Source: Chloroflexota bacterium (GTDB taxonomy: Bacteria; Chloroflexota; Dormibacteria; Dormibacterales; Dormibacteraceae). Taken from it: a stretch of 64,000 bases of DNA. The translations under genes and the position numbers were made by a program. This document shows positions 15,917 through 48,313 of the stretch, in pieces. The notes under the pieces were generated by a model. The model worked only from the letters and a program-made list of their open reading frames with translations. It was not told the origin of the DNA and did not search any database. The stretch lies in assembly GCA_043740835.1 (NCBI GenBank), contig JAYUBK010000015.1, positions 44,679-108,678 on the forward strand. The letters run 5' to 3'. Position 1 is the first letter of the stretch, and every line of letters starts with the position of its first letter.

Positions 15917-16552
15917 TTGTCCTCACGCCTCAATGAGCTTCCGCGTCTCCTGCGCTCGGGCCGCCTTGCACCCCTCCTTCTGCTCGCCCTGGTGGCGGCC
16001 TGCGTCAACTCCGGCCCGGCGGCCGGTCAGGCGACCGTCCCGCCGCCTGCTCCGTCGGCGCCGGCAGTTGCGACGACTGCGCCTCCGGCGACTCTCGCCC
16101 CGGTGCAGGTCCCCGACTTCAAACTGGTGGCCTACCAGGGCGACCAGGCACTCGGAGGCCACGACGGCCACTTCGCTGCCGCGTTCACCGCCGGCAAGCC
16201 TGTCGTCCTGCTCTACTACGGAGGCCTTTGAAGCACCTGTCGGGCAGAGATGCCCGGCTTCGCCCGCGTTGCGGGTGAGTTCGACGGCAGGGTGACCTTC
16301 GTCGCGGTGGACATCGGTCCCTTTGTGGGGCTCGGCACCCATGACGACGGAATGCGTCTCCTCAAGACCACCGGGACGACCTATCCGGCCGGGTACGCCC
16401 TGGATGCCTCGGCATTGCGCCAATACGGCGTTCTCGGAACGCCGACGAGCCTTTACTTCGACCGCCATGGCGCCCTCGTGCGCAAGGTCCAGTCGGCGGT
16501 GGACGAGGGAACGCTCCGCAGCCTGGTCTCGGGGTTGGCCGCCAGCGCGTGA
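15917..16552 (+). CDS. TlpA/ResA-like thioredoxin-fold lipoprotein with in-frame UGA at the CxxC position (candidate selenoprotein, U at codon 105), otherwise a nonsense-disrupted gene
   Basis: ORFs 15917..16231 and 16250..16552 share one frame. The junction reads ..GKPVVLLYYGGL-UGA-STCRAEMPGF..VTFVAVD.., which aligns to the VVL.FWA.WC..C..EMP consensus. Lipobox LALVAAC present. ccdA follows with a GTGA overlap. Confidence 0.7.
16239..16277 (+). promoter_or_regulatory. two GC-rich hairpins just 3' of the in-frame UGA (SECIS candidates)
   Basis: GUCGGGCA-GAGA-UGCCCGGC at 16239-16258 (7 nt after UGA) and CGCCCGC-GUU-GCGGGUG at 16261-16277 (29 nt after UGA). Confidence 0.4.
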
Positions 16553-17403
16553 TCCAAATCACAGGCCGGCGTGGCCTGGCCGCCTGGCTGTTCGCGGTGG
16601 TGACCGTGCTGGCCGCCCTGATCGCGGTCCGGGCTGCCGGCGGTGCGACTGCAGTGCTCTCTTTCGAGCAACTGGTCGGTGGGCCGGCGGCCGGCCTCGG
16701 AGGGCTGGGAGCCGCGCTTCCCTTCGGCTACGCCTTCGCGGCCGGGATGCTGGCCGCGGTGAATCCGTGTGGCTTCGCGCTCCTGCCGGCCTATCTCGCG
16801 CTCTACCTGGGGTCAGCCGACGGCACGCGGGGCCGCGGGCGCCGCTTCCTGCGGGCGGCCTCGATGGCTGCGACGATGAGTGCAGCCTTCGTTCTGAGCT
16901 TTGGGGTCGCCGGGCTCGTGATCGGCGCCGGTGGGACTTTCCTGGGCCACGGCCTTCCCTTCCTGGGCCTCCTGGTCGGCGTCCTCCTGGCCGCGGCCGG
17001 CGCCTATCTCCTGGCCGGGGGAAAGATCTACGCAGCCCTGGGTGACCGGCTGGCTGCCCGGATGGCGCCTGCCGCAGCTGCCGGGGGTCTTCGTGCCTAC
17101 GCCGCCTACGGGCTTGCTTACGCCGCCGCCTCTCTTGGCTGCACCCTGCCGATCTTCCTTTCGGTGGTGGGCGTTGCCGCCGCCACGTCTGGCCCGCTCG
17201 CGACGGTTGGTCAGTTCCTGCTTTACGGAGCCGGGATGGCGGTCGTGGTCACCGCCCTCACCTTCGCCGCCGCCCTGTTCAAGACCGCGCTGCTGAGCCG
17301 CATCCGTCAGGTGGGGGCGGGACTTTTGGAGGCGATAACCGGAGTGCTCCTTGTGCTGACCGGAGCCTATGTCACGGCCTATTGGGTCACGCTGGGCTTC
17401 TGA
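16549..17403 (+). CDS. ccdA: cytochrome c biogenesis / thiol-disulfide electron transporter CcdA (DsbD TM domain family)
   Basis: Polytopic ORF with the conserved ..AAVNPCGFALLPAYL.. and a second Cys (..ASLGCTLPIF..). Confidence 0.9.
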   Translation: MIQITGRRGLAAWLFAVVTVLAALIAVRAAGGATAVLSFEQLVGGPAAGLGGLGAALPFGYAFAAGMLAAVNPCGFALLPAYLALYLGSADGTRGRGRRFLRAASMAATMSAAFVLSFGVAGLVIGAGGTFLGHGLPFLGLLVGVLLAAAGAYLLAGGKIYAALGDRLAARMAPAAAAGGLRAYAAYGLAYAAASLGCTLPIFLSVVGVAAATSGPLATVGQFLLYGAGMAVVVTALTFAAALFKTALLSRIRQVGAGLLEAITGVLLVLTGAYVTAYWVTLGF

Positions 17404-32571: not shown

Positions 32572-33662
32572 TCATTCCTTTTCCTGTCCCTCCGACAGCT
32601 TCCAGCGCAGCCACGCCTCAATGAACGGATCGATCTCCCCTTCGAGCACGGCCTGCGCATTCCCGATCTCCTGCCCGGTTCGGACGTCCTTCACAAGGGT
32701 GTAGGGCTGGAGAGTGTAGTTGCGGATCTGGCTGCCGAACTCCGCCGGCAGCATCTGGCCCTTGATGTCGTCGAGCTGCTTGAGGTTGATGAGCCGCTGC
32801 CGTTCGTAGAGGCGCGCCCGCAGCATCTTCATCGCGATGTCGCGGTTCTTGATCTGGGAGCGTTCGTTCTGGCAGGTGACGACGATGCCGCTCGGCAGGT
32901 GCGTGATACGGATGGCTGACTCCGTCTTGTTTACGTGTTGCCCGCCGGCCCCGCTGGCTCGGTAGGTGTCGATCTTGAGTTCGTCCGGGTTGATGACGAC
33001 GTCGACCTCGGTCTCCTCAAGCTCCGGCATCACCTCCACGAGGGCGAACGACGTGTGCCGGCGGTGGTTCTGGTCGAAGGGGGATATCCGCACCAGCCGG
33101 TGCACGCCGTGCTCAGACCGGAGCAGACCATAGGCGCGGGGACCGCTGATCTGGATGGTCGCGCCTTTGAGTCCCGCCTCCTCCCCGGGAGCCGCTTCCA
33201 GCACCTCCGTTTCGAAGCCGCGCAACTGCCCCCACTTGAGGTACATCCGCATGAGCATCTCGACCCAGTCCTGGGAGTCAACGCCGCCTGCGCCCGCGGA
33301 AAGCGAGACGAGCGCGTTGTTGTTGGCGTACTGGTCGGTAAAGAGAAGGTCAAGCTCTCGCGAGCTCAGCTCCCGGGCAATAGCCGCCCCCTCCTCAACC
33401 AACTGCTCGGCCAGCTCGGGGTCGCCCAACTCGAAAAGCTCGACGTTGTCGCGGGCGCGCGCCTCCAGCGACTCCCAGAGCTCGAGCTCCTCGCGGAGAG
33501 CGCTTGCCTCGCGACCTAGCCGGCCTGCCTGCGCGGGGTCATCCCAGACCCCGGGGCGGCCGAGCAGCCCGTCGAGCTCGACCGCGCGCTTTGCCTTTGC
33601 AGGCAGGTCAAAGATGCTCCTTCAGCTGGGTGATTCGGTCCAGCAGCTGTTTTGGGGAGTAC

Positions 33663-33673
<11 letters not shown>
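32572..33673 (-). CDS. prfB: peptide chain release factor 2, requires programmed +1 frameshift (join 33673..33611, 33609..32572)
   Basis: Frame 0 reads MDAEYSPKQLLDRITQLKEHL then TGA. After a +1 shift it reads DLPAKAKRAVELDGLL... The SPF and GGQ (SGAGGQHVNKT) motifs are in the long frame. Confidence 0.95.
33605..33624 (-). promoter_or_regulatory. RF2 autoregulatory +1 frameshift site
   Basis: Minus strand reads AGGAG-CAU-CUU-UGA-C: an internal SD-like element, a 3-nt spacer, slippery CUU, and UGA in a weak C context. This matches the canonical prfB site. Confidence 0.9.
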
Positions 33674-36323
<2,650 letters not shown>

Positions 36324-36512
36324 AGTGAAGTATTGAGTCTCCCTCAGATTGCTTGTTCTTTCGTTACGGAATTTAGCGGGTCGGGGAAATCACGGAGGTC
36401 CCTTTGTGCGGGCGACAGATCCCAGCGCGAAGAGAAAATGGGCGCTTCCCCGTGCTCACCGACAGCGGACCGCCGCGCCAACCCCGAGGTGGTATTTACC
36501 CCGCGGGGGGCG

Positions 36513-37655
36513 CTACCAAGCCTTCTTGCCCTGCGCAGCGAAGCGCGGATCGGGGAAAAGCATCTGGATCTCGGCCGGGAGCTGAAGCCCCATCGTGAAC
36601 ATCCGGTCTAGGATCTGGGGCCGGATACCGGTGGGCTTGAACTGGCCCACGATCTTCCCGTCCGCCCCTGCGCCCTGCGACTCAAAGACGAAGATCTCCT
36701 GCATGGTGATCGTGTCGCCCTCCATGCCGGTGACCTCGGTGATGCTTGTGACACGGCGCGAGCCATCGCGGAGGCGGTTGAGCTGGACGAAGATGTTGAT
36801 GGCGCCCGCGACCTGCTGGCGAATTGCCTTTACCGGAAGGTCGATGCCCGACATGAGCACGAGCGTCTCGAGACGGGCAAGCGCGTCGCGGGGGCTGTTG
36901 GCGTGGACTGTCGTCATTGAGCCGTCGTGACCGGTGTTCATCGCCTGGAGCATGTCCAGCGCCTCACCACCGCGGCACTCGCCGACGATGATCCGCTCCG
37001 GGCGCATGCGGAGGGAGTTGATCACCAGCCGCTGGATGGTGACCTCGCCCTCGCCGTTGATGTCCTTGGGCCGCGTCTCCAACCGGCACACGTGCTCCTG
37101 GTGGAGTTGGAGTTCAGCGGCATCCTCGATCGTGACGATCCTGTCCTCCGCCGGAATGAAGCTGGAGAGCACGTTCAGGAAGGTCGTCTTGCCGGTGCCT
37201 GTACCACCCGACACGACGACGTTTGCCTTCGCCATGACGCAGGCCTTCATGAAGCCGAAGCCAGACTCGGTGCAACTTCCAAATCGAATTAGGTCCTCGA
37301 CCTGGAGTGGGTCCTTTGCGAACTTACGGATTGTAAGCAGCGGCCCGTCGATCGCCAGTGGGCGGATGACTGCGTTGACGCGGGAGCCGTCGGCAAGGCG
37401 GGCGTCGGCCAGCGGGACGCGCTCGTCGATTCGGCGTCCGACCGAGCGGACGATGAACTGGATGACGTTGAGCAGCTGCTCCTCGTCGGCGAACTTGATG
37501 CCTGTGAGGACCACCTTGCCGCCCATCTCGACGTAGACATGGTCGATGCCGTTGACCATGACCTCCGTTACGCGGTCGTCTTCGATGACGGGCTGGATGG
37601 GCCCGAGCTGGGTGTAGTACTCCTGAAGATCGATGCCCGGTATTCGAACTGCCAT
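36513..37655 (-). CDS. short CpaF/TadA-type secretion ATPase paralog (380 aa, lacks the long N-terminal region of the locus CpaF)
   Basis: VSGGTGTGKTT Walker A, ..IVTIEDAAEL.., ..RPERIIVGECRGGEA.. and ..MNTGHDGSMTTVHANS... Strong similarity to ORF 42157..43716. Confidence 0.85.
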   Translation of the reverse strand: MAVRIPGIDLQEYYTQLGPIQPVIEDDRVTEVMVNGIDHVYVEMGGKVVLTGIKFADEEQLLNVIQFIVRSVGRRIDERVPLADARLADGSRVNAVIRPLAIDGPLLTIRKFAKDPLQVEDLIRFGSCTESGFGFMKACVMAKANVVVSGGTGTGKTTFLNVLSSFIPAEDRIVTIEDAAELQLHQEHVCRLETRPKDINGEGEVTIQRLVINSLRMRPERIIVGECRGGEALDMLQAMNTGHDGSMTTVHANSPRDALARLETLVLMSGIDLPVKAIRQQVAGAINIFVQLNRLRDGSRRVTSITEVTGMEGDTITMQEIFVFESQGAGADGKIVGQFKPTGIRPQILDRMFTMGLQLPAEIQMLFPDPRFAAQGKKAW

Positions 37656-37733
37656 TTAGTCCTCCCTGGGATTGTGTCTGGAACTATAACGTCGGGGCCC
37701 GGCAGTTCGGCGACAAATGGGCGGCGACCTCAA

Positions 37734-38414
37734 TCAAAGCTGGACTCGTGCGACGGTGAGGCCGGTCACGAACCCTGCGCCGGCTGCGCGCAGGGCCTTG
37801 GCGCAGGCGTCGAGAGTGGCCCCGGTGGTTGCAACGTCGTCGATGAGGATCACGGACCGGCGGCCGAGATCCTGACCTCGCCAAGCGAAGGCGCCCGCCA
37901 CGTTGACGAGGCGACACCGCCTGTCGAGGCCCACCTGCGCACCCGTGTCCCGCGTCCGCACGAGACGGCCGGGACCGCAGGGGAGAGCGAGCCGGCGAGC
38001 AAGCTCGGCCGCCAGCAGTTCGGACTGGTTGTAACCCCGCTCCCATTGGCGGCGCGGGTGGAGTGGCACCCAGGCGACGAGCTCGCCGGCGGGGCCGTCC
38101 ACTGCGAGGCGATCCGCGAGCAGCTCCGCCAACGGCTTCGCCAGGGGGCGCCGGCCCTCGTACTTGAAGCGGTGGATGGCCCTCTCCAGGGGCCCCTCGT
38201 AACGGGCGGCGCTCCGCAGCCGGCCCAGCGAGTGAAGCCTGTGGCGACACCCGCAGCGCGCCTTCGCGAACTCGACCTCGGCTCCGCAACGTCTGCAGAG
38301 CGGCTCGCGGAGGCGGTGCGTCCGCAGGCGGCAGCGCTCACAGTAGAGAGCGCCGAACTGGCCACAGCCTCCGCAACGGACCGGCAGGAGAAGGTCGAGA
38401 AGGCGCTCGAACAT
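37734..38414 (-). CDS. comF: ComF family protein (ComFC-type phosphoribosyltransferase with N-terminal zinc finger)
   Basis: LLLPVRCGGCGQ....YCERC.., ..RAIHRFKYEG.. and the PRTase motif ..VILIDDVATTGATL.. Confidence 0.8.
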   Translation of the reverse strand: MFERLLDLLLPVRCGGCGQFGALYCERCRLRTHRLREPLCRRCGAEVEFAKARCGCRHRLHSLGRLRSAARYEGPLERAIHRFKYEGRRPLAKPLAELLADRLAVDGPAGELVAWVPLHPRRQWERGYNQSELLAAELARRLALPCGPGRLVRTRDTGAQVGLDRRCRLVNVAGAFAWRGQDLGRRSVILIDDVATTGATLDACAKALRAAGAGFVTGLTVARVQL

Positions 38415-38451
38415 GCACGCTTCACGTTAAGGGGCCGGTCAACTCCTGCCG

Positions 38452-38817
38452 TTAGGCCAGCTCCATCTGGTCGCCGGGCTTGAGATGGAGCGGCCCGAGC
38501 GTCCCGGCGGGCATCTCGACGACCTTGCGTGCTCCGATGACGATCCAAACGACGCCGATCCATGGCGCGACACGCTCATAGACCTTCTTCACCCGATCGT
38601 TGCGATCCAGGAACAGCGCGTCGATCGGGAACCGCATGAACAGCATGTGGATGCCGTTGCAGGGATCGATCAGCATCGCTCGGCCGGGAGGCAGTGGACT
38701 GCGGAACATGAGCCCGATCCCGCGGCCGATGAAAGTACTCGGGATCTCCAGGCTGTCGGCGAGGACAGTTCCGGATGCAGGGTGGACCAGTCTCGACGGC
38801 CTCGGCACGCGGGCCAT
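38452..38817 (-). CDS. DUF192 domain protein
   Basis: ..RGIGLMFR......MLIDPCNGIHMLFMRFPIDALFLD.. is the typical DUF192 pattern. Start taken at MARVPRP (38817). Confidence 0.75.
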   Translation of the reverse strand: MARVPRPSRLVHPASGTVLADSLEIPSTFIGRGIGLMFRSPLPPGRAMLIDPCNGIHMLFMRFPIDALFLDRNDRVKKVYERVAPWIGVVWIVIGARKVVEMPAGTLGPLHLKPGDQMELA

Positions 38818-38833
38818 CCTACACTTCCGTCTC

Positions 38834-39577
38834 GTGCCCGATTTCAGCAGCGGCGGCGTTCGAATCAACTACGAGCTGATCGGACCCGATGATGGTCCGC
38901 CCACACTCCTCGTCCATGGTTTCGCCAGCAACTACACGCTCAACTGGCTCGGCTCGCGCTGGCAGGACACCCTGACGGGGGCCGGCCGCCTGGTCGTGGG
39001 CCCCGACCTCCGCGGCCACGGCCGGAGCGATAAGCCGCACGACCCGGCGGCCTACGGACCTCACATGGCCGCGGACCTCATCAATCTCCTCGACCACCTC
39101 GACATCGCGCGGGTCGACTATGTCGGCTACTCGATGGGTGCCCGCATCGGCCTGCAGGTGATCCTCAACAACCCCGAGCGCATCCACCGCGCCGTGCTGG
39201 GTGGGCTCGGCAGCATCGGCGCCTGGAGCAAGGCGCAGGCGGTGGCCGCACGCCTGCGGGGCGACACCACGATCGACGACCCGGTCGCCGAGTTTTTTTA
39301 CATGTTCGCCACCCGGAACAGGCAGGACAACGACCTCGAGGCGCTGGCCGCCTGCATCACCGGTCCGAGCATCGAGGTGAGCGACGAGCACCTGGCCGGA
39401 GTGCGCACAGCGGTGCTCCTCGCCGTCGGGGACAGGGATCCACTGGCAAGGGGCGCGCAGAAGCTGGCAGACGCCATCCCGACCTCGGAGTACATCGAAT
39501 TGCCCGGCCGCGATCACATGACCGCGGTCGTCTCGCGCCAGTTCAAGGAGAAGGCGCTGGCGTTCCTCGATCGCTAG
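38834..39577 (+). CDS. alpha/beta hydrolase
   Basis: ..LLVHGFASN.. and nucleophile elbow GYSMGA. GTG 38834 chosen as start; the track ORF start at 38600 overlaps the divergent DUF192 gene. Confidence 0.85.
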   Translation: MPDFSSGGVRINYELIGPDDGPPTLLVHGFASNYTLNWLGSRWQDTLTGAGRLVVGPDLRGHGRSDKPHDPAAYGPHMAADLINLLDHLDIARVDYVGYSMGARIGLQVILNNPERIHRAVLGGLGSIGAWSKAQAVAARLRGDTTIDDPVAEFFYMFATRNRQDNDLEALAACITGPSIEVSDEHLAGVRTAVLLAVGDRDPLARGAQKLADAIPTSEYIELPGRDHMTAVVSRQFKEKALAFLDR

Positions 39578-39588
39578 GAGAAAGCTGC

Positions 39589-40110
39589 CTAGCTTCCCAT
39601 CCGGTTGAAGCGCACGCGCCGCTTGCGGTGGTTGGTCTCGAGGTCGTTGGAAACGATGCTGATGGAGCCGTCCGCTTCCAGGACCCCCAGCTTCACCTGC
39701 TCGATCTTTTCGACCCCGTGCTCGCGTGCGGCCATCTCCAGCTCACCCTGATCAAGGTTCTCCCGACGAACGTTGTCGGTGAGGATCTTGCCGTCCTGAA
39801 TCAGGATCGTCGGGGACGGGGTGAAGAGGTTATGGAAGAATGGGATGCGGTCGAGTCGGGACACCCCGAGGTTGGCCAGGAGGAGCGAGACGATGATGAT
39901 CACACCTCCGGTCACTGAGCTGTCGGGGCCCGTCATCGCGGGCTGGACCGCGTTGGCGACGAGAAGCACTAGGACCAGGTCGAAAATCGTGAACTGTCCC
40001 ACTTCCCGTTTGCCGAATACGCGCAGCCCAATCAGCAGAACGCCGTAAATGACGACGGATCGGACGACGAGTTGCCACGCCGGAACGCCAAGTTGGAGGA
40101 AGTCAGGCAT
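39589..40110 (-). CDS. DUF421 (YetF-like) membrane protein
   Basis: Three N-terminal TM helices (..RVFGKREVGQFTIFDLVLVLLVANAV..) followed by a soluble C-terminal domain. Confidence 0.8.
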   Translation of the reverse strand: MPDFLQLGVPAWQLVVRSVVIYGVLLIGLRVFGKREVGQFTIFDLVLVLLVANAVQPAMTGPDSSVTGGVIIIVSLLLANLGVSRLDRIPFFHNLFTPSPTILIQDGKILTDNVRRENLDQGELEMAAREHGVEKIEQVKLGVLEADGSISIVSNDLETNHRKRRVRFNRMGS

Positions 40111-40181
40111 GCGTCATCCCTTCCGTGCAGCGCCTGGACACGGGTCGTGAGAGGAGAGCCGGAAGCGTTCTTCCAGGGGGC

Positions 40182-41117
40182 TTAACCGCTGCGCGCCTTC
40201 ATGATGATCAGCACGGCAGGGCCGAGCAGGATCAGCCACAGTGTCGGGAAGATGCAGCCGACCATCGGAAGCATCATCTTGAGTGAGGCCTGGGCGGCCT
40301 TCTCCTCTGCCCGCTGACGCCGCTTGCGCCGCATCTCCTCGGATTGGAGGCGGAGGATCTTGGCGAGACCCACACCCATCTGTTCCGACTGGATAACGGC
40401 CTGGGTGAAGTTGTGCAGGTCTTCAACACCGCAGCGGCGGCCCATGTCGTCGAGCGCCTCCAGTCGCGGCCGGCCGAGTCGAACCTCCTGGAGGACGGTG
40501 TTGAACTCGTCGGCGAGGGCGTTCTTGAACTTGTCGGTTACGCGGGCCACGGCAGCGTCGAAACCAAGGCCCGCTTCGACGGCGATCGTCAGCAGGTCCA
40601 TGACGTCGGGAAGCGAGAGCTGGATCTCCTTGCGGCGCTTCTGAACCTCACCGTTGAGCCAGAAGGGAGGGCCGTAGTAACCGAGCACGGCGCCGACGGC
40701 CGCGGAGACGGCGAGCGCTACGGGGCTGTGGAAGAGCAGGCCGAGCAGGAGCCCGACGATGAAGAGGACCACCGCGAGGCCGAGGCGAAGGGCCGAGAAG
40801 TCAGAGGGCGACAGGTTGCCCGGCCGTCCCGCCAGGTTGAGTCGGTTCTGGAGGTCCTGGCGCTGCTTGTCGGGCGTTCGGTTGGCCAGGTACTTGCCGA
40901 GCCTCTCGATGGTGGGGCGGACGAAGCGCTCCTCGAACGATTTCTGGAGCTCGACCTCGTCGAGGGTCAAGGGCTTCTGCCCGGCGAAGGCCTGGAGGCG
41001 CTCCTGGACCATGTCCCCGGAGAGGGCGCTGGCATTGCGCGCCGAATACATGCCCCAGAACACGAGGAAGACCCCGCCTGCGGCGAGGACTCCGAACAGC
41101 AGCATCTGTGGGGGCAT
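40182..41117 (-). CDS. tadC: Flp pilus assembly membrane protein TadC (T2SS-F family)
   Basis: T2SSF-type domain (..LSLPDVMDLLTIAVEAGLGFDAAV..) with flanking TM helices. Follows tadB. Confidence 0.85.
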   Translation of the reverse strand: MPPQMLLFGVLAAGGVFLVFWGMYSARNASALSGDMVQERLQAFAGQKPLTLDEVELQKSFEERFVRPTIERLGKYLANRTPDKQRQDLQNRLNLAGRPGNLSPSDFSALRLGLAVVLFIVGLLLGLLFHSPVALAVSAAVGAVLGYYGPPFWLNGEVQKRRKEIQLSLPDVMDLLTIAVEAGLGFDAAVARVTDKFKNALADEFNTVLQEVRLGRPRLEALDDMGRRCGVEDLHNFTQAVIQSEQMGVGLAKILRLQSEEMRRKRRQRAEEKAAQASLKMMLPMVGCIFPTLWLILLGPAVLIIMKARSG

Positions 41118-41123
41118 TTTTCG

Positions 41124-42125
41124 CTAGACCTCGATTGCGGTGACTTTACCCATCACCAGATTGCCAAGGAAGATCATGAAGCAGGCCGCGCCGAGGATTG
41201 CCCATCCCACCGGGCTCTCGGTCATCGGCTTGAAGTAGGTAGGCGTCGCGAAGTACATGAAGACGGCAAGGATGATGGGGAGCCCGGTGATCAGCTGGCC
41301 GGAAGAGCGGGCGCTTGCCGTCAGTGTTGCGATCTGACCCTTGATCCGGATGCGCTCGCGAATCGTGAAGGCGATGTTGTCGAGGATCTCGGCCAAATTT
41401 CCGCCCACGGTGCGGTGGATTGCCACTGCGGTCACCATCAGGTCAAGATCGTCCGACTCGATGCGCTTCACCATGCTGCCCAGCGACTCTTCGATGGTGC
41501 CACCCAGGTTCATCTCGCGAACTGCTCGGGTGAACTCGTCCGCGATCGGCGGGCTGGCGTTCTTGGCGACGGTGTCCACCGCCTGGGCGAAGGAATAGCC
41601 GGCCTTGAGGGCATTGGAAAGCAGGATCAGAGTGTCACCCAACTGGTTGTTGAACGCCTTGAGCCGCGCCTTCTGGCGAAAGTTCACGTAGATGCCGGGG
41701 ATGAAGTAGCCGCCGACGCCCATCAGCACGGGGGCTAGGCCGATGCCTCCGAAGCGAATGACGCCGATGACGAAGAGCAGGAGAACGAGGCCGATCTGGA
41801 TCATGAAGTACTCCGACGTCCGCAGCTTGAGGTCGGCCTTGGCCAGGTTCTCCTGGAGTGAAGGCTTGCCCTTCTTCACGTTGCCCTTGCCGGCCTGATC
41901 GGCCAGGGGCTGGAAGATCCTGGCGACTCGCTCGCGGAAATTGGTGGGTGCGGGGACGGCAGGAAGACTCCCCGGAAAGCTGAGCGCACCCGCCTCGATG
42001 ACGCCGTACTCGGCCAGGCGCGCGGTGAGATCGGAGGATGCGGTGCGAACCTGGGCCAGGCCATAGAAGACAGCCATCACGCCCAGGCCGGCGATGATCG
42101 CGACGGCGATATGAGTCAGGTCCAT
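41124..42125 (-). CDS. tadB: Flp pilus assembly membrane protein TadB (T2SS-F family)
   Basis: T2SSF-type domain (..LGDTLILLSNALKAGYSFAQAV..). Lies downstream of cpaF. Confidence 0.85.
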   Translation of the reverse strand: MDLTHIAVAIIAGLGVMAVFYGLAQVRTASSDLTARLAEYGVIEAGALSFPGSLPAVPAPTNFRERVARIFQPLADQAGKGNVKKGKPSLQENLAKADLKLRTSEYFMIQIGLVLLLFVIGVIRFGGIGLAPVLMGVGGYFIPGIYVNFRQKARLKAFNNQLGDTLILLSNALKAGYSFAQAVDTVAKNASPPIADEFTRAVREMNLGGTIEESLGSMVKRIESDDLDLMVTAVAIHRTVGGNLAEILDNIAFTIRERIRIKGQIATLTASARSSGQLITGLPIILAVFMYFATPTYFKPMTESPVGWAILGAACFMIFLGNLVMGKVTAIEV

Positions 42126-42156
42126 GTCGGTCTACGCGCTCCTAAGTGTTCGGATT

Positions 42157-43716
42157 TCAGTAGAGCTCCTCAAAGGCGGGCTCGGATACAGGTATGAACA
42201 ACTCGTCGGGAAGATCCTCGCCGGCGGCTCTGATGGCGTCATGGCGCATCGGCTTGATGCCGGTCGCGGTGTGGTAGCCCACTGCCTTGCCATCGCGGAG
42301 GTTCACCTGCTTGAAAACGAAGATCTCCTGGGTCTGGATCTCGCCCTGGTTGATGCCGGTGATCTCAACGATGGAGACGATCTTGCGCGGTCCGCCGCGG
42401 AGGCGCTGCTGCTGAACGATGATGTGTACGGCGGCGGCCATCTGCTCGCGGATGGCCCGCGAGGGAAGGTCGGCGCCGGCCATCAGCACGAGAGTCTCCA
42501 GACGACCGAGAGCCTCGTGCGGGTTGTTGGCATGAAGCGTCGACATGGACCCGTCGTGACCGGTGTTCATCGCCTGCAGCATGTCAAGGGCCTCGCCACC
42601 GCGGCACTCTCCGACGATGATCCTGTCGGGCCGCATGCGGAGGCAGTTCTTGACGAGGTCGCGGATGGGCACGGCACCCTTGCCCTCCACGTTGGCGGGG
42701 CGGGACTCGAGGGTGATCACATGGTCCTGCTGGAGCGAAAGTTCGGCGGCGTCCTCGCAGGTGATGATCCGCTCCTCAGCCGGGATGAACGTCGACAGGA
42801 TGTTAAGCAGCGTCGTCTTTCCGGAGCCGGTGCCGCCCGAGACGATGCAATTGAGGCGGGCACGAACCGCCGCCTTGAGGAAGTGGATCATCTGCGGCGT
42901 CGCCGACTTGAAGACGAGCAGGTCGTTCGGTCCCAGCTTCTCCTTGGAGAACTTTCGGATCGTCATGCAGGGCCCTTTCAGGGCGAGGGGCGGGATGATG
43001 ACGTTGACACGGGAGCCGTCCTTCAGGCGGGCGTCGGCCATCGGTGAGGACTCGTCGACGCGGCGGCCGATCGAGCTGACGACGCGGTCAATGACCCTCA
43101 TGAGCTGCTTGTCGCTCTCAAAGGTCACGTCGGAGAGCATCGGCTGGCCACGGCGCTCGATGTAGATCTGCTTGGGGTGGTTGATCATGATTTCGGTGAT
43201 GTCGTTGTCGTTGAGGAGGATCTCCAGTGGACCAAGTCCGAGGATGTCGTCCATCAGAGATTCGATGAGCCTTTCCTTGTCCGACCGCGTCATCGTCAGG
43301 CCTGAATTGCGCACGTAGTCATCGGCCAGCTCCACGATCTTCTCGCGGACGAACTCGCGGTCGGTGACGTCGATCTTGTTGGCGTACTGCTCCAGGAGCT
43401 TGGCGTGGACCGTCGTCTTGGCGGAGGCGAAGGCCGGGGTGATGGCGATGGCGCCGCTGATGCCGCCAGCACGCTCAGCGAGGCCGCCGGGCGTGGTCGG
43501 GGGCGGAGCGGGGGCTGCCGGAGCGGGCACGACCGGGTGCGTTGCCGTGGCGCCGACGCCCGAGGCGGGGCTGGCCGGCGCCGCGAAGGTGGAGGGAACA
43601 GGGGGACCGCCGTTTCCCGCAGTCGGCGTGCTGGGGACCGGCGGAGACAGGGTCGGGGCGCTGGGTGCGCCAGACCGCTGCTGGTTCGCCTGGTTCACGC
43701 GGTCGAGGAGGCCCAT
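42157..43716 (-). CDS. cpaF: Flp pilus assembly ATPase CpaF/TadA
   Basis: 519 aa with a Pro/Ala-rich N-terminus. Motifs: Walker A SGGTGSGKTT, ..IITCEDAAEL.., ..RPDRIIVGECRGGEA.. and ..NTGHDGSMSTLHANN.. Confidence 0.95.
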   Translation of the reverse strand: MGLLDRVNQANQQRSGAPSAPTLSPPVPSTPTAGNGGPPVPSTFAAPASPASGVGATATHPVVPAPAAPAPPPTTPGGLAERAGGISGAIAITPAFASAKTTVHAKLLEQYANKIDVTDREFVREKIVELADDYVRNSGLTMTRSDKERLIESLMDDILGLGPLEILLNDNDITEIMINHPKQIYIERRGQPMLSDVTFESDKQLMRVIDRVVSSIGRRVDESSPMADARLKDGSRVNVIIPPLALKGPCMTIRKFSKEKLGPNDLLVFKSATPQMIHFLKAAVRARLNCIVSGGTGSGKTTLLNILSTFIPAEERIITCEDAAELSLQQDHVITLESRPANVEGKGAVPIRDLVKNCLRMRPDRIIVGECRGGEALDMLQAMNTGHDGSMSTLHANNPHEALGRLETLVLMAGADLPSRAIREQMAAAVHIIVQQQRLRGGPRKIVSIVEITGINQGEIQTQEIFVFKQVNLRDGKAVGYHTATGIKPMRHDAIRAAGEDLPDELFIPVSEPAFEELY

Positions 43717-43727
43717 CTGTTTAAGTG

Positions 43728-44972
43728 CTAGCCCCCGGGGGTCTTGGTCCAGAAGGCCAGGCGTTTGCCTGACCTCGCGGACCGGCCCTCGGAGCCGCCC
43801 AAGGGTACCAGAGAACCTACGAGTTCACGAATCTTTTGGCTGATGTCGGCCTCCGGAAAAAGCTTTGTGAAGGGCTCCGCCCGCTGCACGCTCTTGAGCA
43901 TCAGCTTTCCGTCACTGGGAAGGCGGACCAGGATCTTGGTTTCGAGGCTCGCCTCCACCTGGTGCACGGTGATGCCCGAGTTCGTTTCGGACCGATTGAG
44001 CACCAGCTTGATCCGCGTCGGCGGAATGTTGAGGCGCTGGAAGACGCGCAGCGCGAGCTTCGCCTCCTTCACGGCGGGCAGGCTGAGATCGACGAGGACG
44101 ACAATATGGTCAGCTCGTTCGATCGCCTCCAGCGTCACCTCGCCGAGGTGCGAGCTCGTGTCCACAACGACGTGGTCGAAACCCTCCTGGAGGATGCCGA
44201 GGATGGCCCGGGCGTGTTCGGCGGTTACGAGGTCGGCGTACTCCGGGCTCGGAGGCCCGAGGAGCACCCGGAACCCCCCGGGCGCCTCGGGCATCAGCGA
44301 CTCGATGAAGTCCTGGTCGACGTTGGGGTATGCCTCGACGACCTGGAAGATGTTGCGACCCGAGTCGAGGCCGAGGAGGACGCCGACATCGCCGAATTGG
44401 AGGTCGAAGTCAACCAGCGCGACGCGCCCCTGGGTCTCCTTGACGAGGGTCGCTGCCACGTTGATCGCAAGCATCGACTTGCCGACGCCGCCCTTGCCGC
44501 TGAACACCAGCGTGATGACCCCGGGACGCTTTTCGGGCGGCTCCTCGGCATCGGACTCGCCGTCCCTCCCGTCCTCGGCGGCACCCAACGCCTGCTGGCG
44601 CTTGATGATTTCGAGCTGGTGGACACGTCGGAGCGCCGCCACCAGCTCGTCGCCGCTGAAGGGTTTGACAAGGAACTCCCGTGCGCCCGCTTCCATGCCG
44701 CGCCGGAGGTACTCGCGGTCCTCCTGCACCGACATCAGGACAACCGCCGCATGCGGTGGCTCGTCGACGAGGATTTCCGTCGCTCGGATGCCGTCGCGGC
44801 CGGGCATGTTGACATCCATGAGGACGACGTCCGGCAGGAGCCGGCGGACCTCCTCGATCCCGGCATCAGCGTTCAGCGCCGTCGAGACGACGTCAATGTC
44901 GTCCTCGAAGCCGAGAAGCTTGCGGAGGTTATCGAGCGTCGCCGGGACGTCATCGATGATGACGACCCTGAT
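43728..44972 (-). CDS. cpaE: CpaE/TadZ-like ParA/MinD ATPase fused to an N-terminal receiver (REC) domain
   Basis: REC domain (IRVVIIDD ... VVLMDVNMPGRDG ... KPF), a linker, and the deviant Walker A FSGKGGVGKS. The REC N-terminus lies upstream of the first ATG (44819). An ATC at 44972 follows a GGAGGAG SD after a 9-nt spacer. Confidence 0.8.
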   Translation of the reverse strand: MRVVIIDDVPATLDNLRKLLGFEDDIDVVSTALNADAGIEEVRRLLPDVVLMDVNMPGRDGIRATEILVDEPPHAAVVLMSVQEDREYLRRGMEAGAREFLVKPFSGDELVAALRRVHQLEIIKRQQALGAAEDGRDGESDAEEPPEKRPGVITLVFSGKGGVGKSMLAINVAATLVKETQGRVALVDFDLQFGDVGVLLGLDSGRNIFQVVEAYPNVDQDFIESLMPEAPGGFRVLLGPPSPEYADLVTAEHARAILGILQEGFDHVVVDTSSHLGEVTLEAIERADHIVVLVDLSLPAVKEAKLALRVFQRLNIPPTRIKLVLNRSETNSGITVHQVEASLETKILVRLPSDGKLMLKSVQRAEPFTKLFPEADISQKIRELVGSLVPLGGSEGRSARSGKRLAFWTKTPGG

Positions 44973-44993
44973 CGGTAGGTTCTCCTCCGTGGC

Positions 44994-45902
44994 TTACCCG
45001 CTCAACGCCTGCGCAAAGGCCGGAAACTTGGCGATGATGTCGTCGGCCCTGACACCGGCTATTGCTCGTGCTGCGTTGACGCTGTTGCAGCTGGCGTCGG
45101 GGGCGGTCGGCGTCGACGCGTAGTCCTTATACGACTCGAGGATGTAAGTGACCTGCGCGTTGTTCTGGAACCATTTGAGATACGAGGCGTCGCACGCCGT
45201 CGTCATGACCGTCAGGCTCGTCGCGGCGGCCGTTGGCGGGGGCTGCGCCCCCGCTCCCTGGCCGCTGGACCCACCCGCCGGGGCAGTTGAAAGGTTGGCG
45301 GCGCCCACGCGCAGGATGCGGAGATTGGAGAAGACGACCGCCGCCGCTGCCTTCTTGGCCGATCCCATGGTGGCGACGACCGAGATGTAGTCACCGGGCT
45401 GGGGGTAGTTGGCCACTCCGATCTGCTCGCTGGTCGGGATCGTGAACGCGACGTAACCGGCCGGGATGGGGAGGAATGCGGCTTGGGCGCCGGCAACCGC
45501 GTCACCGGGCTTGGCGACGAGGTTGGCGAGGATCGGCTGGTCCTTCGAGATGTTGACCTCGGCGATGTCGTTCTGAACGAGCTTCAACGCCTCCGACAGC
45601 AACTGTTCGGACTTGACGGAGGACGCCACCGTGAAGGCGCCGGGGGGCACGTCGCTCTGTGCGATGTTCTTGATCTGGAGCTGATCGGCCGAGAGGATCT
45701 GCGTCCGCAGCGGGATGTCCTTGCCCGCGTAGACGACGTGCGTTGTCGGGCCACCCACACCACCTGACTTGGTGGAACCCAGGTTCGAGAGGACGAATAC
45801 GGCGCCGAAGGCGACTAGCGCCAGGAAAGCACCAATGATGATGAAAATCCGACCGCCGCTGGCCGCACGTGGTCGCGATGGTCCGGGGGGCGCTACTGCC
45901 AT
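44994..45902 (-). CDS. cpaB: Flp pilus assembly protein CpaB/RcpC (SAF domain)
   Basis: N-terminal TM helix (RIFIIIGAFLALVAFGAVFVL) followed by a SAF-like segment (..VVYAGKDIPLRTQIL..). GGAGGTGA SD upstream. Confidence 0.85.
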   Translation of the reverse strand: MAVAPPGPSRPRAASGGRIFIIIGAFLALVAFGAVFVLSNLGSTKSGGVGGPTTHVVYAGKDIPLRTQILSADQLQIKNIAQSDVPPGAFTVASSVKSEQLLSEALKLVQNDIAEVNISKDQPILANLVAKPGDAVAGAQAAFLPIPAGYVAFTIPTSEQIGVANYPQPGDYISVVATMGSAKKAAAAVVFSNLRILRVGAANLSTAPAGGSSGQGAGAQPPPTAAATSLTVMTTACDASYLKWFQNNAQVTYILESYKDYASTPTAPDASCNSVNAARAIAGVRADDIIAKFPAFAQALSG

Positions 45903-46031
45903 TGGTTTACCTCACCTCCGAGAGCTCGGGGTTGAAAGATCGTCGCCATTATATGGACGCTTCGGCGTGAATCCGACGACGCTGGTCACGGGTGCTGCCG
46001 ATCGCCACAGCGCAGTGGCGGGAAATCGCGA

Positions 46032-46056
46032 GAGAGCCCCGGCGGCCGGGGCTCTC
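46032..46056 (-). terminator. strong stem-loop downstream of flp-1 (attenuator/terminator candidate)
   Basis: GAGAGCCCCGG-CCG-CCGGGGCTCTC (11-bp perfect stem) about 30 nt after the flp-1 stop. Only a weak T-tract follows. Confidence 0.55.
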
Positions 46057-46084
46057 CGCGAAGAATGGTTTCTCTGGCCGCAGA

Positions 46085-46261
46085 CTAGGTGTTAAGAGCG
46101 CTGACAACGTTCGAGAAGACGTTCTTGATCTGACCACCCATCGTAAGAAGGATGACGATGACGACGATCGAGACGAGAACCAGGATCAAGGCGTACTCCA
46201 CCATTCCCTGACCTTCCTGGCGAATGAGCAGATTCCGCATTTTCCAGCTGAGATTCATCAT
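46085..46261 (-). CDS. flp: Flp family type IVb pilin (58 aa prepilin)
   Basis: MMNLSWKMRNLLIRQEG-QGMVEYALILVLVSIVVIVILL.. carries the Flp G-x4-EY processing motif. AAGGAGGTG SD upstream. Confidence 0.9.
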   Translation of the reverse strand: MMNLSWKMRNLLIRQEGQGMVEYALILVLVSIVVIVILLTMGGQIKNVFSNVVSALNT

Positions 46262-46380
46262 TTCCTGTTTCACCTCCTTGGCTCCCGGTTGGGGGCTTGC
46301 TCGATGTGTAACGGGCGTCCATCCTCGTTCTTGCGCCTGACGAACCACCCGGTCTGTCCAAGTCGCTCCGTCCAGGTGCG

Positions 46381-47415
46381 CTAGAGGCCGTTGGCGATCG
46401 TCGGCGGCAGTTTGTAGAGCTGACGGACGTCGGCGATCGATGCGCCACGAACGTCGATGCGCTCAGCACTGACACTGCCCAGGCCCCAGGCGCCGGCGAG
46501 TCGGACGTGGTCCGGCGTGGTGGGGTCGATGCCCATGATCCGGCTGCAGGTCGCGTCGACAGCGACGCAGTCGGTGCCCATCACGACAACGCCCGTGCGC
46601 CGCGGGTCCCCGAAGATCGGGCCGTCCCCCTCCATCCCGATGATGCCGTCGACGAGCGCCAGGTGGGGCCGAAAGGTCGCGTACAGGGCCAGGATCGCGA
46701 GCGGGATCCCGTGCCAGTGGAGAATGTTCTTTGGCCATCCGTAGCGGCTTCCGGGAACGATCCCAAAGAGATTCTTCAGGCTCAGCGACACGCCCGCCCA
46801 GTGGTGGGCTTTGAGCTTGGGCATGGAGACGAAGTAGTCGGCGTCGACGACGGTCTTGGGCGCGAACAGGGTGGGGATGGACCAGTAACCGCCCTTGAGA
46901 GGGGTCTCGACGAGGTCGTCATGGTTGAGGTCCACGAAGCGGACGCCATGCCGCGCCAGCATCACGTCGACGCCCGTCCGGGCCAGAAGTGTCTGCGAAT
47001 CGCTTTCAAAGGCGGCACCTTCGGCGACTATGATCTCGGCCGCGCCAAGATCCTTGAATAGGCCAATCGCCGCTTCGATGAAGCGAACGTCGGTCGTCGC
47101 GGGCCCGCTTGAGCCGATCGCCACCAGGTTGGGCTTGAGCACGACCCGCTTTCCTCTAACCTTCGCGACCGAATCTCCGCTGAGCTGCCACGCGTGGTGG
47201 AGCGCCCCTTCCAGGTCGGCGCCGTAGTCCGCGCTGCGAGTGATGGCAACCGCCGGCCGTGGCCCGAGGTAGACGCCGAGTGCCTGCAGACGCCAGCGAG
47301 CAAGGTCGAGCGGGCTGAAGCCGCCGAACCACTGGCTGAGGTAGGCGGTCTCGCCGGCTATCAAACCCAGCAAGCCAATTCGAATCAGGTTGCGGCGGGT
47401 GAGCTTCCGCTTCAA
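46381..47415 (-). CDS. DUF362 domain protein with twin-arginine signal
   Basis: TTG at 47415 overlaps the upstream TGA (TTGA) and gives MKRKLTRRNLIRIGLLGLIAG.. (Tat motif TRRNLI). DUF362-type core ..GKRVVLKPNLV.. Confidence 0.8.
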   Translation of the reverse strand: MKRKLTRRNLIRIGLLGLIAGETAYLSQWFGGFSPLDLARWRLQALGVYLGPRPAVAITRSADYGADLEGALHHAWQLSGDSVAKVRGKRVVLKPNLVAIGSSGPATTDVRFIEAAIGLFKDLGAAEIIVAEGAAFESDSQTLLARTGVDVMLARHGVRFVDLNHDDLVETPLKGGYWSIPTLFAPKTVVDADYFVSMPKLKAHHWAGVSLSLKNLFGIVPGSRYGWPKNILHWHGIPLAILALYATFRPHLALVDGIIGMEGDGPIFGDPRRTGVVVMGTDCVAVDATCSRIMGIDPTTPDHVRLAGAWGLGSVSAERIDVRGASIADVRQLYKLPPTIANGL

Positions 47416-48263: not shown

Positions 48264-48313
48264 GTGAACTCTAGATAACCAGCCCCGACACTTCCCGGCT
48301 CAGCAGGCAAGGA

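Follow-up and report, generated by a model that had tools for sequence, protein, structure and literature searches.

The window, meaning the whole 64,000-nucleotide stretch of DNA that was analysed, contains two open reading frames (15917..16231 and 16250..16552) that lie in the same frame and are separated only by a TGA codon at 16229-16231 and six sense codons. A first-pass annotation of this DNA had pointed out the arrangement, and both sequence and frame bear it out. Reading through the TGA joins GKPVVLLYYGGL, the UGA and STCRAEMPGFARVAGEF into one product, with the UGA as codon 105 (Table 1). In public assemblies the gene is annotated as two hypothetical proteins of 104 aa and 100 aa. It is 100% identical in three further assemblies from other samples, which excludes an assembly error. 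A search of 5.8 billion protein clusters gives no full-length entry; the best match has 54% identity, and all are Cys forms.

Table 1. Positions of the candidate selenoprotein gene, its RNA elements and its partner gene in the window
Feature	Position	Strand	Remarks
TlpA/ResA-like selenoprotein candidate, full read-through CDS	15917..16552	+	211 codons including candidate Sec105, then TGA stop 16550-16552
Lipoprotein signal peptide (predicted): TTG start, basic n-region, hydrophobic core, lipobox L-V-A-A-C	15917..16003	+
CUU-UGA: candidate Sec codon (UGA 16229-16231, residue 105) and conserved preceding Leu CTT	16226..16231	+
TGT, Cys108, resolving cysteine of the U-S-T-C motif	16238..16240	+	Invariant in all family members
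Hairpin 1	16239..16258	+	8 bp in the window (7 bp consensus); loop GAGA (consensus NGAGAU); starts 7 nt after the UGA
Hairpin 2, best SECIS candidate	16259..16279	+	9-bp stem; loop GUU 16268-16270 (family: GUN)
Pro176 codon, invariant cis-proline-loop residue (G-T-P-T) of the thioredoxin fold	16442..16444	+	32-sequence alignment
Partner gene, 284-aa polytopic membrane protein, probable DsbD/CcdA superfamily	16549..17403	+	GTG start overlaps the TGA stop (GTGA, 16549-16552)

The read-through protein adopts a thioredoxin fold. Pfam assigns it to AhpC-TSA with 31.3 bits (cutoff 26) and to Thioredoxin with 23.7 bits (cutoff 23.5), and in the AF2 model, where the domain has pLDDT values of 94-98, residue 105 caps the N-terminus of helix 107-121. 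Both marks of the fold are present: a cis-Pro loop, and a (C/U)xxC motif where helix 1 begins. None of the NCBIfam models reaches its cutoff for this protein. The ResA model (NF002854) scores 31.5 bits against a cutoff of 170 and the TlpA model (NF047696) 22.1 bits against 230; these scores are so far under the equivalog cutoffs that the protein is a family-level relative and an orthologue of neither. At the N-terminus, the lipobox that had been noted earlier stands as LVAAC, with Cys29 at 16001-16003, and by pattern matching L[AV]AC follows a hydrophobic stretch in about 15 orthologues with N-terminal coverage. A Pro/Ala/Thr-rich tether extends from there to about residue 64. The AF2 model shows helix 18-29 and then a low-pLDDT linker. 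Judged from these sequence features, the product is probably exported and lipidated at Cys29.

The codon at position 105 is TGA in 23/23 members of the subfamily and TGC or TGT in 141/141 other family members (related sequences, counted without correction for phylogeny). This distribution, 23/23 against 0/141, excludes chance. The 22 orthologues are 64-79% identical to the window copy, which excludes their being assembly chimeras of a single population, and all have TGA at the same codon. Those with names are Dormibacterota MAGs, four of them from different GTDB species-representative MAGs, and the TGA-bearing sequences span at least five species-level lineages. The comparison of orthologues that the first-pass annotation had recommended thus gives TGA, not TGY, throughout, with Cys in the paralogues. 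The UGA forms make up a single exclusive clade, whose sister group consists of Dormibacterota/soil CPPC paralogues.

In alignments, the TGA falls on the first Cys of C-P-P-C in 31/31 homologues and on the N-terminal CxxC Cys of the solved structures 3kcm and DsbF. The earlier proposal that UGA takes the place of the first CxxC cysteine, giving UxxC, is upheld by these structures and by the 141 Cys-bearing family members. Several near-invariant residues around the active site are altered relative to the Cys forms (LNFFAG to LLYYGG, PP to ST), and the inner dipeptide of U-xx-C varies across the subfamily. Sec-type and Cys-type modules co-occur in one genome (L004 and L011, from the same MAG), each with its own partner.

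Two hairpins follow the UGA. Both had been recognized in the first-pass annotation, but hairpin 2 is longer than described there and its end coordinates had to be corrected to those of Table 1. Starting with the UGA, the first 72 nt have a folding energy of -35.2 kcal/mol, compared with -26.5 +/- 2.9 for shuffled sequences (z = -2.95; 0/200 shuffles fold as well). Over the 63 nt after the codon, the TGA forms reach -33.3 kcal/mol and 47 high-GC Cys forms -23.1. RNAalifold finds both hairpins without structure input, with 97.7% of cells pairing, and hairpin 1 has an invariant 5-bp core (16241-16245 / 16252-16256). Third positions have an entropy of 0.15 bits in the stem codons, compared with 0.97 bits for 40 other four-fold sites (p = 5e-4); in the loop codons it is 1.25 and 1.51 bits, the latter value being that of the loop Val of hairpin 2. 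The stem codons of hairpin 1, Arg CGG and Pro CCC, are used in 20/20 unique TGA forms (again related sequences, without phylogenetic correction) and in 33% and 39%, respectively, of 109 Cys forms encoding the same peptide. Hairpin 1 overlies the invariant peptide CRAEMPG and is also formable in 14-19% of Cys forms. Since the covariation signal is weak (one compensatory double change, from C-G to U-A, in hairpin 2 of L088; 45/500 shuffles reach the observed score), the structural support rests on conservation. The stems are too conserved for a covariance model to add anything. Rfam searches of the whole window at gathering thresholds, and of 16150-16400 at a permissive E <= 10, returned only tRNAs and two chance matches, and nothing SECIS-like.

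The consensus for bacterial SECIS elements comprises four criteria, among them a loop spacing of 16-37 nt (PMC13188914). Hairpin 2 agrees with all four, having a 36-nt spacing, a 3-nt loop that begins with G-U, 9 bp and a stability of about -13 to -15 kcal/mol. This spacing falls at the outer limit of the consensus, whereas the other SECIS candidates of the lineage lie at 16-25 nt. Hairpin 1 departs from the criteria in spacing alone, with its loop 14-15 nt from the UGA. The claim that the hairpins occupy the SECIS interval stands for hairpin 2 and falls just short for hairpin 1. The RNA hairpins after the UGA are conserved features peculiar to the TGA forms, and they agree with the SECIS consensus for bacteria.

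Wherever the flank of a UGA-type locus is long enough, the partner gene lies directly 3' of the UGA gene (57-64% identity); it does so in most Cys-type loci as well, and the gene pair is conserved. It had been called ccdA; the GTGA overlap described with that assignment is present, but the product is not a canonical CcdA and is probably a divergent protein of the DsbD/CcdA superfamily. Pfam DsbD_TM matches 5/19 partner orthologues (best 2e-07), and the window copy matches DsbD_2 only, at E = 0.054, which is below threshold. There is no NCBIfam or PDB sequence match for the protein, and the PDB profile search gave only spurious phage coat-protein matches. Two cysteines are invariant, Cys74 (NPCG) and Cys198 (LGCTLP). 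Synteny reveals no third partner gene or substrate gene beyond the two-gene pair.

The first-pass reading is thus supported, and those of its proposed refuting checks that were run all turned out in its favour. In our assessment, 15917-16552 is very probably a single gene that encodes an exported lipoprotein disulfide reductase of the TlpA/ResA/CcmG class, in which Sec replaces the N-terminal Cys of the CxxC motif (U-S-T-C). The in-frame UGA would escape RF2 while SelB delivers Sec-tRNA(Sec), recruited by an mRNA element within 50 nt after the UGA that would consist of the two abutting GC-rich hairpins. Hairpin 2, with its GUN loop, is the likely SelB-binding SECIS. A UGA in the A site would place hairpin 1, which begins 7 nt further on, at the mRNA entrance, where this hairpin may make the ribosome pause and bring hairpin 2 within reach. 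Termination is probably weakened by the conserved CUU-UGA-(A/C) context. Anchored via Cys29, the lipoprotein is expected to act through a selenenylsulfide intermediate and to reduce disulfides on the outer side of the cytoplasmic membrane, and the presumably co-transcribed DsbD/CcdA-like membrane protein, carrying cytoplasmic electrons, would re-reduce it. The identity of the inserted residue as Sec, the choice of the SelB-binding hairpin, export and lipidation, the path of the electrons and the substrate are inferred.

A more elaborate version of this mechanism, which we put forward as speculative and rather unlikely, has a composite recoding signal in place of a single fdhF-like SECIS, together with a dedicated selenol relay. 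A shift-prone, weakly terminating CUU-UGA-A/C, whose hexamer is shared with the frameshift site of the genome's own prfB, would be followed by a proximal GC clamp hairpin that pauses the ribosome at the mRNA entrance and folds away 20 nt, and then by a distal G-U-loop hairpin that binds SelB. If this were true, the Sec reductase and its co-evolving DsbD/CcdA-like paralogue would form an extracytoplasmic selenol relay parallel to the Cys relay of the same cell.

That the residue inserted at the UGA is Sec is suggested by its position in the protein and, indirectly, by the company it keeps. TGA also occurs at the UxxC or CxxU position in AhpC/TSA, deiodinase-like, DUF3179, TIGR01926 and SelL-related genes on Dormibacterota or allied contigs. 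Some of these genes are on the Dormibacterota contigs L007, which also has an orthologue of the present gene, and L010, and the hairpins downstream of them have G-U loops. Together with these five other candidate families, the gene indicates that Dormibacterota, a widespread, largely aerobic soil phylum represented by MAGs only, use Sec in several redox proteins. The literature searched makes no mention of Dormibacter* or Dormiibacter* together with selenocysteine.

The alternative that survives best, albeit as an improbable one, is that the UGA is read by a standard amino acid, either through a SelB/SECIS-type system (Cys via a Sec-like tRNA(UCA)) or by spontaneous read-through with near-cognate Trp or Cys. 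The conserved UGA, the translated frame and the hairpins show recoding and leave the inserted residue unspecified. Moreover, CUU-UGA-(A/C) is a weak termination context, and selA, selB, selD and tRNA-Sec were found neither in the window and the 10 kb flanking it on each side nor in related loci totalling 1.5 Mb; of the source genome this covers the 64 kb of the window and about 20 kb more, so that the outcome carries little information and does not count as absence. ARAGORN scans of the window and of 38 related loci detected no tRNA-Sec; no sel genes came out of the Pfam annotation, which took in the window and 10 kb on either side of it; and tblastn with E. coli SelA, SelB and SelD against the 1.5 Mb of related loci gave only generic GTPase matches at unrelated loci. 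Against a standard residue, however, recoding falls on the redox nucleophile, a position at which known selenoproteins as a rule show Sec/Cys pairs (PMC13188914). For Cys, a TGY codon would serve at no cost, yet 0/23 sequences have reverted, and Trp is unable to replace the nucleophile. The presence in the same lineage of five established selenoprotein families with TGA at Sec positions also speaks for Sec.

Very improbable, and effectively refuted, is the view that the gene is a pseudogene, that is, a TlpA paralogue inactivated by a fixed TGY-to-TGA nonsense change and yielding only a 104-aa N-terminal fragment. It could appeal to the split made by public gene callers, to the active-site residues that differ from those of the Cys forms, and to one orthologue, L087, which has a second stop codon and looks decayed. 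The remainder of the subfamily behaves otherwise. The 104 codons after the TGA are free of indels and, L087 excepted, of extra stops; the 145-codon domain as a whole aligns without indels among orthologues, and the C-termini coincide. At dS of about 0.6, dN/dS is 0.23 downstream of the TGA versus 0.21 upstream. All three TGA bases are invariant, as against 1/40 control four-fold sites. The TGA is kept at codon 105 across the sampled lineages, and so is the partner gene directly downstream. Uniform truncation of the orthologues with loss of the downstream frame, which the first-pass annotation had named as evidence against a selenoprotein, is the opposite of what is seen: the frame is conserved and under purifying selection. 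The locus is thus one gene, with UGA conserved at the catalytic position and a downstream frame that is translated and selected.

A programmed +1 frameshift at CUU-UGA, in the manner of prfB and aided by an upstream G-rich or SD-like sequence, has an equally slim chance. The hexamer CUUUGA is identical to the prfB site of this genome; CTT precedes TGA in 22/23 subfamily members and accounts for about 3% of the Leu codons at other invariant positions of these genes; and the window has GGAGG 1 nt upstream (GGAGG C CUU UGA). But the SD-like sequence is unconserved among orthologues and its spacing is unlike that of prfB, the +1 frame runs into a stop at 16295, about 21 codons on, and the frame under selection is the 0 frame, which aligns to Cys homologues without gaps and places U-x-x-C on C-P-P-C. 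This conserved 0-frame continuation refutes the frameshift as a productive route, though frameshifting may still occur as a minor by-product.

Elsewhere in the genome UGA serves as a stop codon, as had been stated earlier for the window. There, TGA ends 22/51 ORFs with strong coding signal, and prfB (RF2) is encoded with its frameshift cassette; the code has therefore not been reassigned. Other in-frame TGAs returned by a composition scan (50620 on the + strand and 52754 on the - strand) look like antisense artefacts, and there is no other credible one in the window. Least probable of all, and refuted, are genome-wide UGA reassignment, by the count of TGA stops and the presence of RF2, and two independent small genes, for which the ATG six codons after the TGA (16250) might be cited but which would cut through the thioredoxin-fold active site, leave the C-terminal half without a signal peptide, and take as a start codon the invariant Met of C-R-A-E-M-P that is present in uninterrupted Cys forms too.

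With Sec at residue 105 as the preferred reading, the finding extends a known class and does not overturn current understanding. Sec-containing TlpA-like proteins are already catalogued; what is new is an unannotated member in Dormibacterota. The 23 sequences form a clean, testable subfamily that selenoprotein databases could take up and on which an NCBIfam-type model could be built. The Sec/Cys module pair in one genome could show how selenium benefits an extracytoplasmic disulfide reductase, and the tandem hairpins with CUU-UGA offer a compact system for the tuning of SECIS geometry and termination context.

ResA of Bacillus subtilis, CcmG-DsbE, and TlpA of Bradyrhizobium are CxxC reductases that are anchored in the membrane, act outside the cytoplasm and depend on CcdA or DsbD for their supply of reductant. 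The protein described here shares their fold (Foldseek TM 0.84-0.85 and rmsd 2.2 A for ResA 1st9/1su9; also DsbE 3gl3 and CcmG 1kng), the active site at a helix N-cap, the cis-Pro loop, the acidic residue after the motif (C-R-A-E), the N-terminal anchor and the adjoining gene for a membrane electron carrier of the CcdA type, putative in our case. It differs from them in the putative Sec for Cys and in having only 20-26% sequence identity. No cytochrome c maturation or Sco/Cox genes adjoin it. Etrx1 and Etrx2, surface lipoproteins of Streptococcus pneumoniae, are paired with CcdA1 and CcdA2. They, too, are structural matches (4hqs, 2yp6/4hqz) and, like our candidate, are lipoprotein TlpA-like thioredoxins with a paralogue-specific partner of the CcdA type (putative in our case). 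However, they use Cys and adjoin MsrAB2, which they reduce, and no Msr gene is linked here.

Among selenoproteins, the Rcas_1661 family of Chloroflexota (NF041057, 'DsbG-like') is an exported thioredoxin-fold selenolipoprotein with UxxC and offers a precedent in a related phylum, but it is a different family, scoring 12.3 bits against a cutoff of 190. Like the E. coli fdhF-type SECIS, the element lies within the coding region, follows closely on the UGA and has a small apical loop with G-U at a consensus distance; it differs in having two abutting hairpins instead of one long one, with the G-U loop 36 nt out and a proximal GAGA-type loop. A close parallel in kind is with the catalogued TlpA/AhpC-TSA-type selenoproteins. 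They have the same thioredoxin fold, Sec for the first CxxC Cys, far commoner Cys homologues and a stem-loop right after the UGA, and they were likewise identified in silico by the Sec/Cys pair. Compared with them by description, the present candidate is distinguished as a predicted lipoprotein, restricted to Dormibacterota as sampled, that has a DsbD/CcdA-like partner of its own, a dipeptide that varies within U-xx-C, and an RNA element made up of two hairpins.

The lipoprotein gene with the in-frame TGA is very probably a genuine selenoprotein gene (see the table). The first-pass reading of it as a selenocysteine candidate is borne out by the split between TGA and Cys codons, selection in the 0 frame, the RNA hairpins and the use of TGA as a stop. 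The two same-frame ORFs, parted by the TGA and six sense codons as first described, give a read-through product of 211 residues, which scores 31.3 bits against AhpC-TSA (cutoff 26) and 23.7 bits against Thioredoxin (cutoff 23.5). When it is aligned with 31 full-length homologues (36-45% identity), the TGA occupies exactly the column proposed for it, that of the first Cys in a C-P-P-C that does not otherwise vary. The C-R-A-E-M-P that comes next is invariant too, so the ATG of the second ORF is a conserved Met of the family. The 681 nt spanning the gene are 100% identical in three further assemblies from different samples, and the TGA is therefore no one-off assembly error. In public assemblies (ENA, Logan, NCBI), for the window as well as for the related loci L001-L003, the gene is split into two hypothetical proteins that have neither a name nor a Pfam match, one of 104 (or 79) residues and one of 100; in the protein collection, the 100-residue half makes up a 90% cluster of its own with five members.

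Features of the window and of related loci (L numbers, from genome and metagenome scans); positions are those of the window unless a locus is named
Feature	Location	Motif or codon	Match or count
TlpA/ResA-like lipoprotein gene	15917-16552 (+); ORFs 15917..16231 and 16250..16552	TGA 16229-16231 (residue 105); preceding Leu codon 16226-16228	
Segment altered in U forms	16196-16240	residues 94-108	
Hairpin 1	16239-16258		
Hairpin 2	16259-16279		
Partner gene	16549-17403 (+)	NPCG, LGCTLP	
RF2 (prfB)	32572-33680 (-)	CTTTGA 33613-33608 (-)	TIGR00020, 410 bits, cutoff 370
Tad/Flp pilus cluster	36500-48300 (-)		
U-form subfamily		VVLLY[YF][GA]GL-U-xx-CRAEMPGFARVAG	64-79% identity to window; first active-site codon TGA in 23/23
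All other family members			first active-site codon TGC in 100, TGT in 41
U form with second stop	L087 2099-2420	TGA, TAG	
AhpC/TSA	L007 (-), TGA at 2997	W-U-PYC	Pfam 94.9 bits
Deiodinase-like	L010 (-)	T-U-PYC	PF00837
DUF3179	L009, L010 (-), L025, L093, L094, L098, L104, L106, L111, L114, L115, L118, L120, L124, L139, L144	VTW-U-PLC	PF11376, 290 bits; ~16 loci
TIGR01926 peroxidase-related	L098 (+16214), L101, L103, L104, L109, L123, L124	CHY-U	147.7 bits, cutoff 81.8; 7 loci
SelL-related redox protein	L093 (+6312), L094, L139 (-12529)	G-U-LxC	NF040769, 171 bits, cutoff 120
Second TlpA-like gene	L010 3525, L095 12022, L096 4631, L097 9912, L105 12071, L118 3285, L119 2555, L120 4557	W-C-V-[DE]-C-R-x-E-M-P	

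A scan of GTDB species-representative genomes identifies four orthologues (71-74% identity), three of them in MAGs named Candidatus Dormiibacterota, together with many remoter Cys forms in Dormibacterota, Chloroflexota and other phyla. All four have TGA at the same codon, within the motifs U-SS-C, U-LT-C (twice) and U-PV-C, and a metagenome scan queried with their alignment adds 18 further orthologues. When each locus is sorted by the codon at the first active-site position, the question of TGA or TGY is answered in favor of TGA throughout the subfamily. None of the 23 U forms differs at any base of the TGA, whereas a single one of 40 control four-fold sites is invariant. Neighbour-joining groups the 16 unique full-domain U forms into one exclusive clade, whose sister group consists of CPPC paralogues from Dormibacterota and from allied soil bacteria; L004 (a U form) and L011 (a Cys form) come from the same MAG. 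The simplest history would be that the gene was duplicated and one copy then changed once from Cys to Sec.

Around the active site, the near-invariant L-N-F-[FW]-A-G of Cys forms is replaced by L-L-Y-[YF]-[GA]-G in U forms, and the two residues that separate the redox positions, nearly always P-P in Cys forms, vary in U forms (ST, SS, LT, PV, TT, TI, TV). Marine SAR202 Cys forms have C-S-T-C. The copy at L087 carries a second in-frame stop (TAC to TAG) 17 codons after its TGA, along with a stem-breaking R117L and D132H, which points to decay of the copy or else to poor assembly. The organism can be placed in Dormibacterota, since the proteins nearest to the SecA of the window (72-74% identity) carry the names Candidatus Dormibacteraeota or Dormibacteraceae.

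TGA is a normal stop in the window, as the first-pass annotation held, and ends 22 of the 51 ORFs with strong coding signal (TAG 22, TAA 7); a composition scan of the window finds no further in-frame TGA that is credible. The window's prfB carries AAGGAG-CAT-CTT-TGA-C, the classic cassette for programmed +1 frameshifting: CTT TGA C closes ORF1 (MDAEYSPKQLLDRITQLKEHL), and the SD-like AAGGAG precedes it by 3 nt. In public gene calls, prfB is reduced to its downstream part of 285 aa. The hexamer of this frameshift site recurs as CUU-UGA in 22 of 23 U forms, CTT accounting for ~3% of the other invariant Leu codons there, and the base after UGA is always A or C. The conserved CUU-UGA-A/C may reflect selection for a weak termination context.

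Translation past the UGA is supported by the conservation of the downstream frame, a check proposed at the outset. The 145-codon domain has no indels in any copy, and the C-termini agree within one codon. Over 136 sequence pairs (mean dS ~0.6), dN/dS is 0.21 for the 40 codons upstream of the UGA and 0.23 for the 104 codons downstream; downstream dS between the window and each orthologue is 0.75-1.4. Judged from these substitution patterns, purifying selection acts equally on both halves and in one frame. The matching dN/dS and the indel-free domain therefore exclude three alternatives: a pseudogene, a truncated product and a productive +1 frameshift at CUU-UGA. The +1 frame, moreover, stops after ~21 codons.

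Both hairpins described in the first pass are present 3' of the UGA. From the UGA onward, a 72-nt stretch has a folding energy of -35.2 kcal/mol, whereas shuffles give -26.5 +/- 2.9 (z = -2.95; 0/200 fold as well). Counting the U of UGA as position 1, RNAalifold with no structure supplied pairs 11-17 with 24-30 in hairpin 1 (loop NGAGAU) and 31-39 with 43-51 in hairpin 2 (loop GUN). Overall, 97.7% of hairpin cells pair. Nearly all pairs are invariant, with one double compensatory change (C-G to U-A, locus L088) and a covariation score attained by 45/500 shuffles, and the case for the hairpins thus rests on conservation. Third positions of the stem codons have entropies of 0, 0, 0.28, 0.45 and 0 bits, versus a mean of 0.97 bits at 40 other four-fold sites of the same gene (Mann-Whitney p = 5e-4); the two loop codons reach 1.25 and 1.51 bits. 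The stem-forming codons CGG and CCC occur in 20/20 unique TGA forms versus 33% and 39% of 109 Cys forms, the peptide CRAEMPGF being common to both. Without phylogeny correction, the folding energy of the 63 nt that follow the codon is -33.3 +/- 2.5 kcal/mol for TGA forms versus -23.1 +/- 3.9 for 47 Cys forms of similar GC.

The bacterial SECIS consensus combines a 4-16 bp stem, an MFE of -7.5 kcal/mol or lower, a distance of 16-37 nt from UGA to loop, and a loop of 3-9 nt that has G within its first two positions, most often with G or U after it (PMC13188914). Hairpin 2 agrees in every respect, with 9 bp, a GUN loop 36 nt from the UGA and -13 to -15 kcal/mol; hairpin 1 departs from it solely in its spacing of 14-15 nt. 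The earlier placement of both in the SECIS interval holds for hairpin 2; the loop of hairpin 1 lies slightly too close to the UGA. No Rfam model matches the hairpins. Other candidate selenoprotein genes of these lineages have hairpins 16-25 nt from the UGA with CGUGU or AGUU loops, a G-U signature that hairpin 2 shares and hairpin 1 lacks. Hairpin 2 would be the element that binds SelB. Hairpin 1, starting 7 nt after the UGA, would sit at the mRNA entrance with the UGA in the A site and may serve as a pause element and spacer; when folded, it would leave a path of 7 + 9 = 16 nt from the UGA to the hairpin 2 loop.

No sel gene or tRNA-Sec is found in the window and 10 kb beyond each end, and E. 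coli SelA, SelB and SelD queries return nothing specific in 1.5 Mb of related loci. A composition-based scan of the related loci detects many more in-frame TGAs that fall at UxxC or CxxU positions and have coding signal before and after them, and the families of these genes are listed as selenoproteins in a 2026 review. L007 and L010 are Dormibacterota MAG contigs; L007 also bears an orthologue of the lipoprotein gene, and L010 has two TGAs, at 6013 and 5017, in deiodinase-like and DUF3179 candidates. There is good indirect evidence in these sequences for a working Sec system in Dormibacterota.

The DUF3179 genes lie near Cys-type TlpA/CcdA-like modules, each with a hairpin 20 nt after the UGA, CGGGCAU[CGUGU]AUGCCCG. 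Their stems show compensatory changes (CGGGCAU/AUGCCCG vs CGGGAAU/AUUCCCG; also CCGGUC/GACCGG). The TIGR01926 and SelL-related genes, the latter with an AGUU loop 25 nt after the UGA, belong to the same redox gene clusters on soil Chloroflexota/Dormibacterota-like contigs.

The next gene had been named ccdA. Its GTGA overlap is confirmed, but its product is best described as a probable divergent member of the DsbD/CcdA superfamily: Pfam DsbD_TM matches 5/19 partner orthologues (best E = 2e-07), and the window's copy is sub-threshold. This partner, with an invariant Cys in each of two motifs, follows every U form with enough flank (57-64% identity) and most Cys forms. No further synteny extends past the two genes, and the conserved unit is therefore the reductase/partner pair. 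Cys-type modules often include a second TlpA-like gene ~2 kb downstream of the first, which makes them larger extracytoplasmic redox clusters, whereas the UGA-type module stands alone. The Tad/Flp pilus cluster (two Flp pilin genes, RcpC, a CpaE-like ATPase with receiver domain, CpaF, TadB/C), located between a histidine kinase and SecA, is unrelated to the selenoprotein gene.

The predicted lipobox is evident as L-V-A-A-C (Cys29) after a basic region and hydrophobic core; it is kept in ~15 orthologues and followed by a Pro/Ala/Thr-rich tether. In an AlphaFold model of the domain (pLDDT 94-98), helix 107-121 has residue 105 at its N-cap. Solved structures closest to the model are ResA (TM 0.84-0.85, rmsd 2.2 Å), DsbE/CcmG, DsbF, StoA and the pneumococcal lipoprotein thioredoxins Etrx1/2, all of them extracytoplasmic reductases. 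The product scores far below the cutoffs of the curated ResA and TlpA models and is therefore a family-level relative, orthologous to neither.

The U-form subfamily appears to be unannotated so far. No NCBIfam model reaches its cutoff on the product, the best full-length match in 5.8 billion protein clusters is a Cys form (54% identity), and no paper in the literature searched links Dormibacterota with selenocysteine. The kind is already known, since the prokaryotic selenoprotein catalogue has entries for thiol-disulfide oxidoreductases of TlpA-like and Prx-like type that contain Sec in UxxC, as well as for thioredoxin-like selenolipoproteins.
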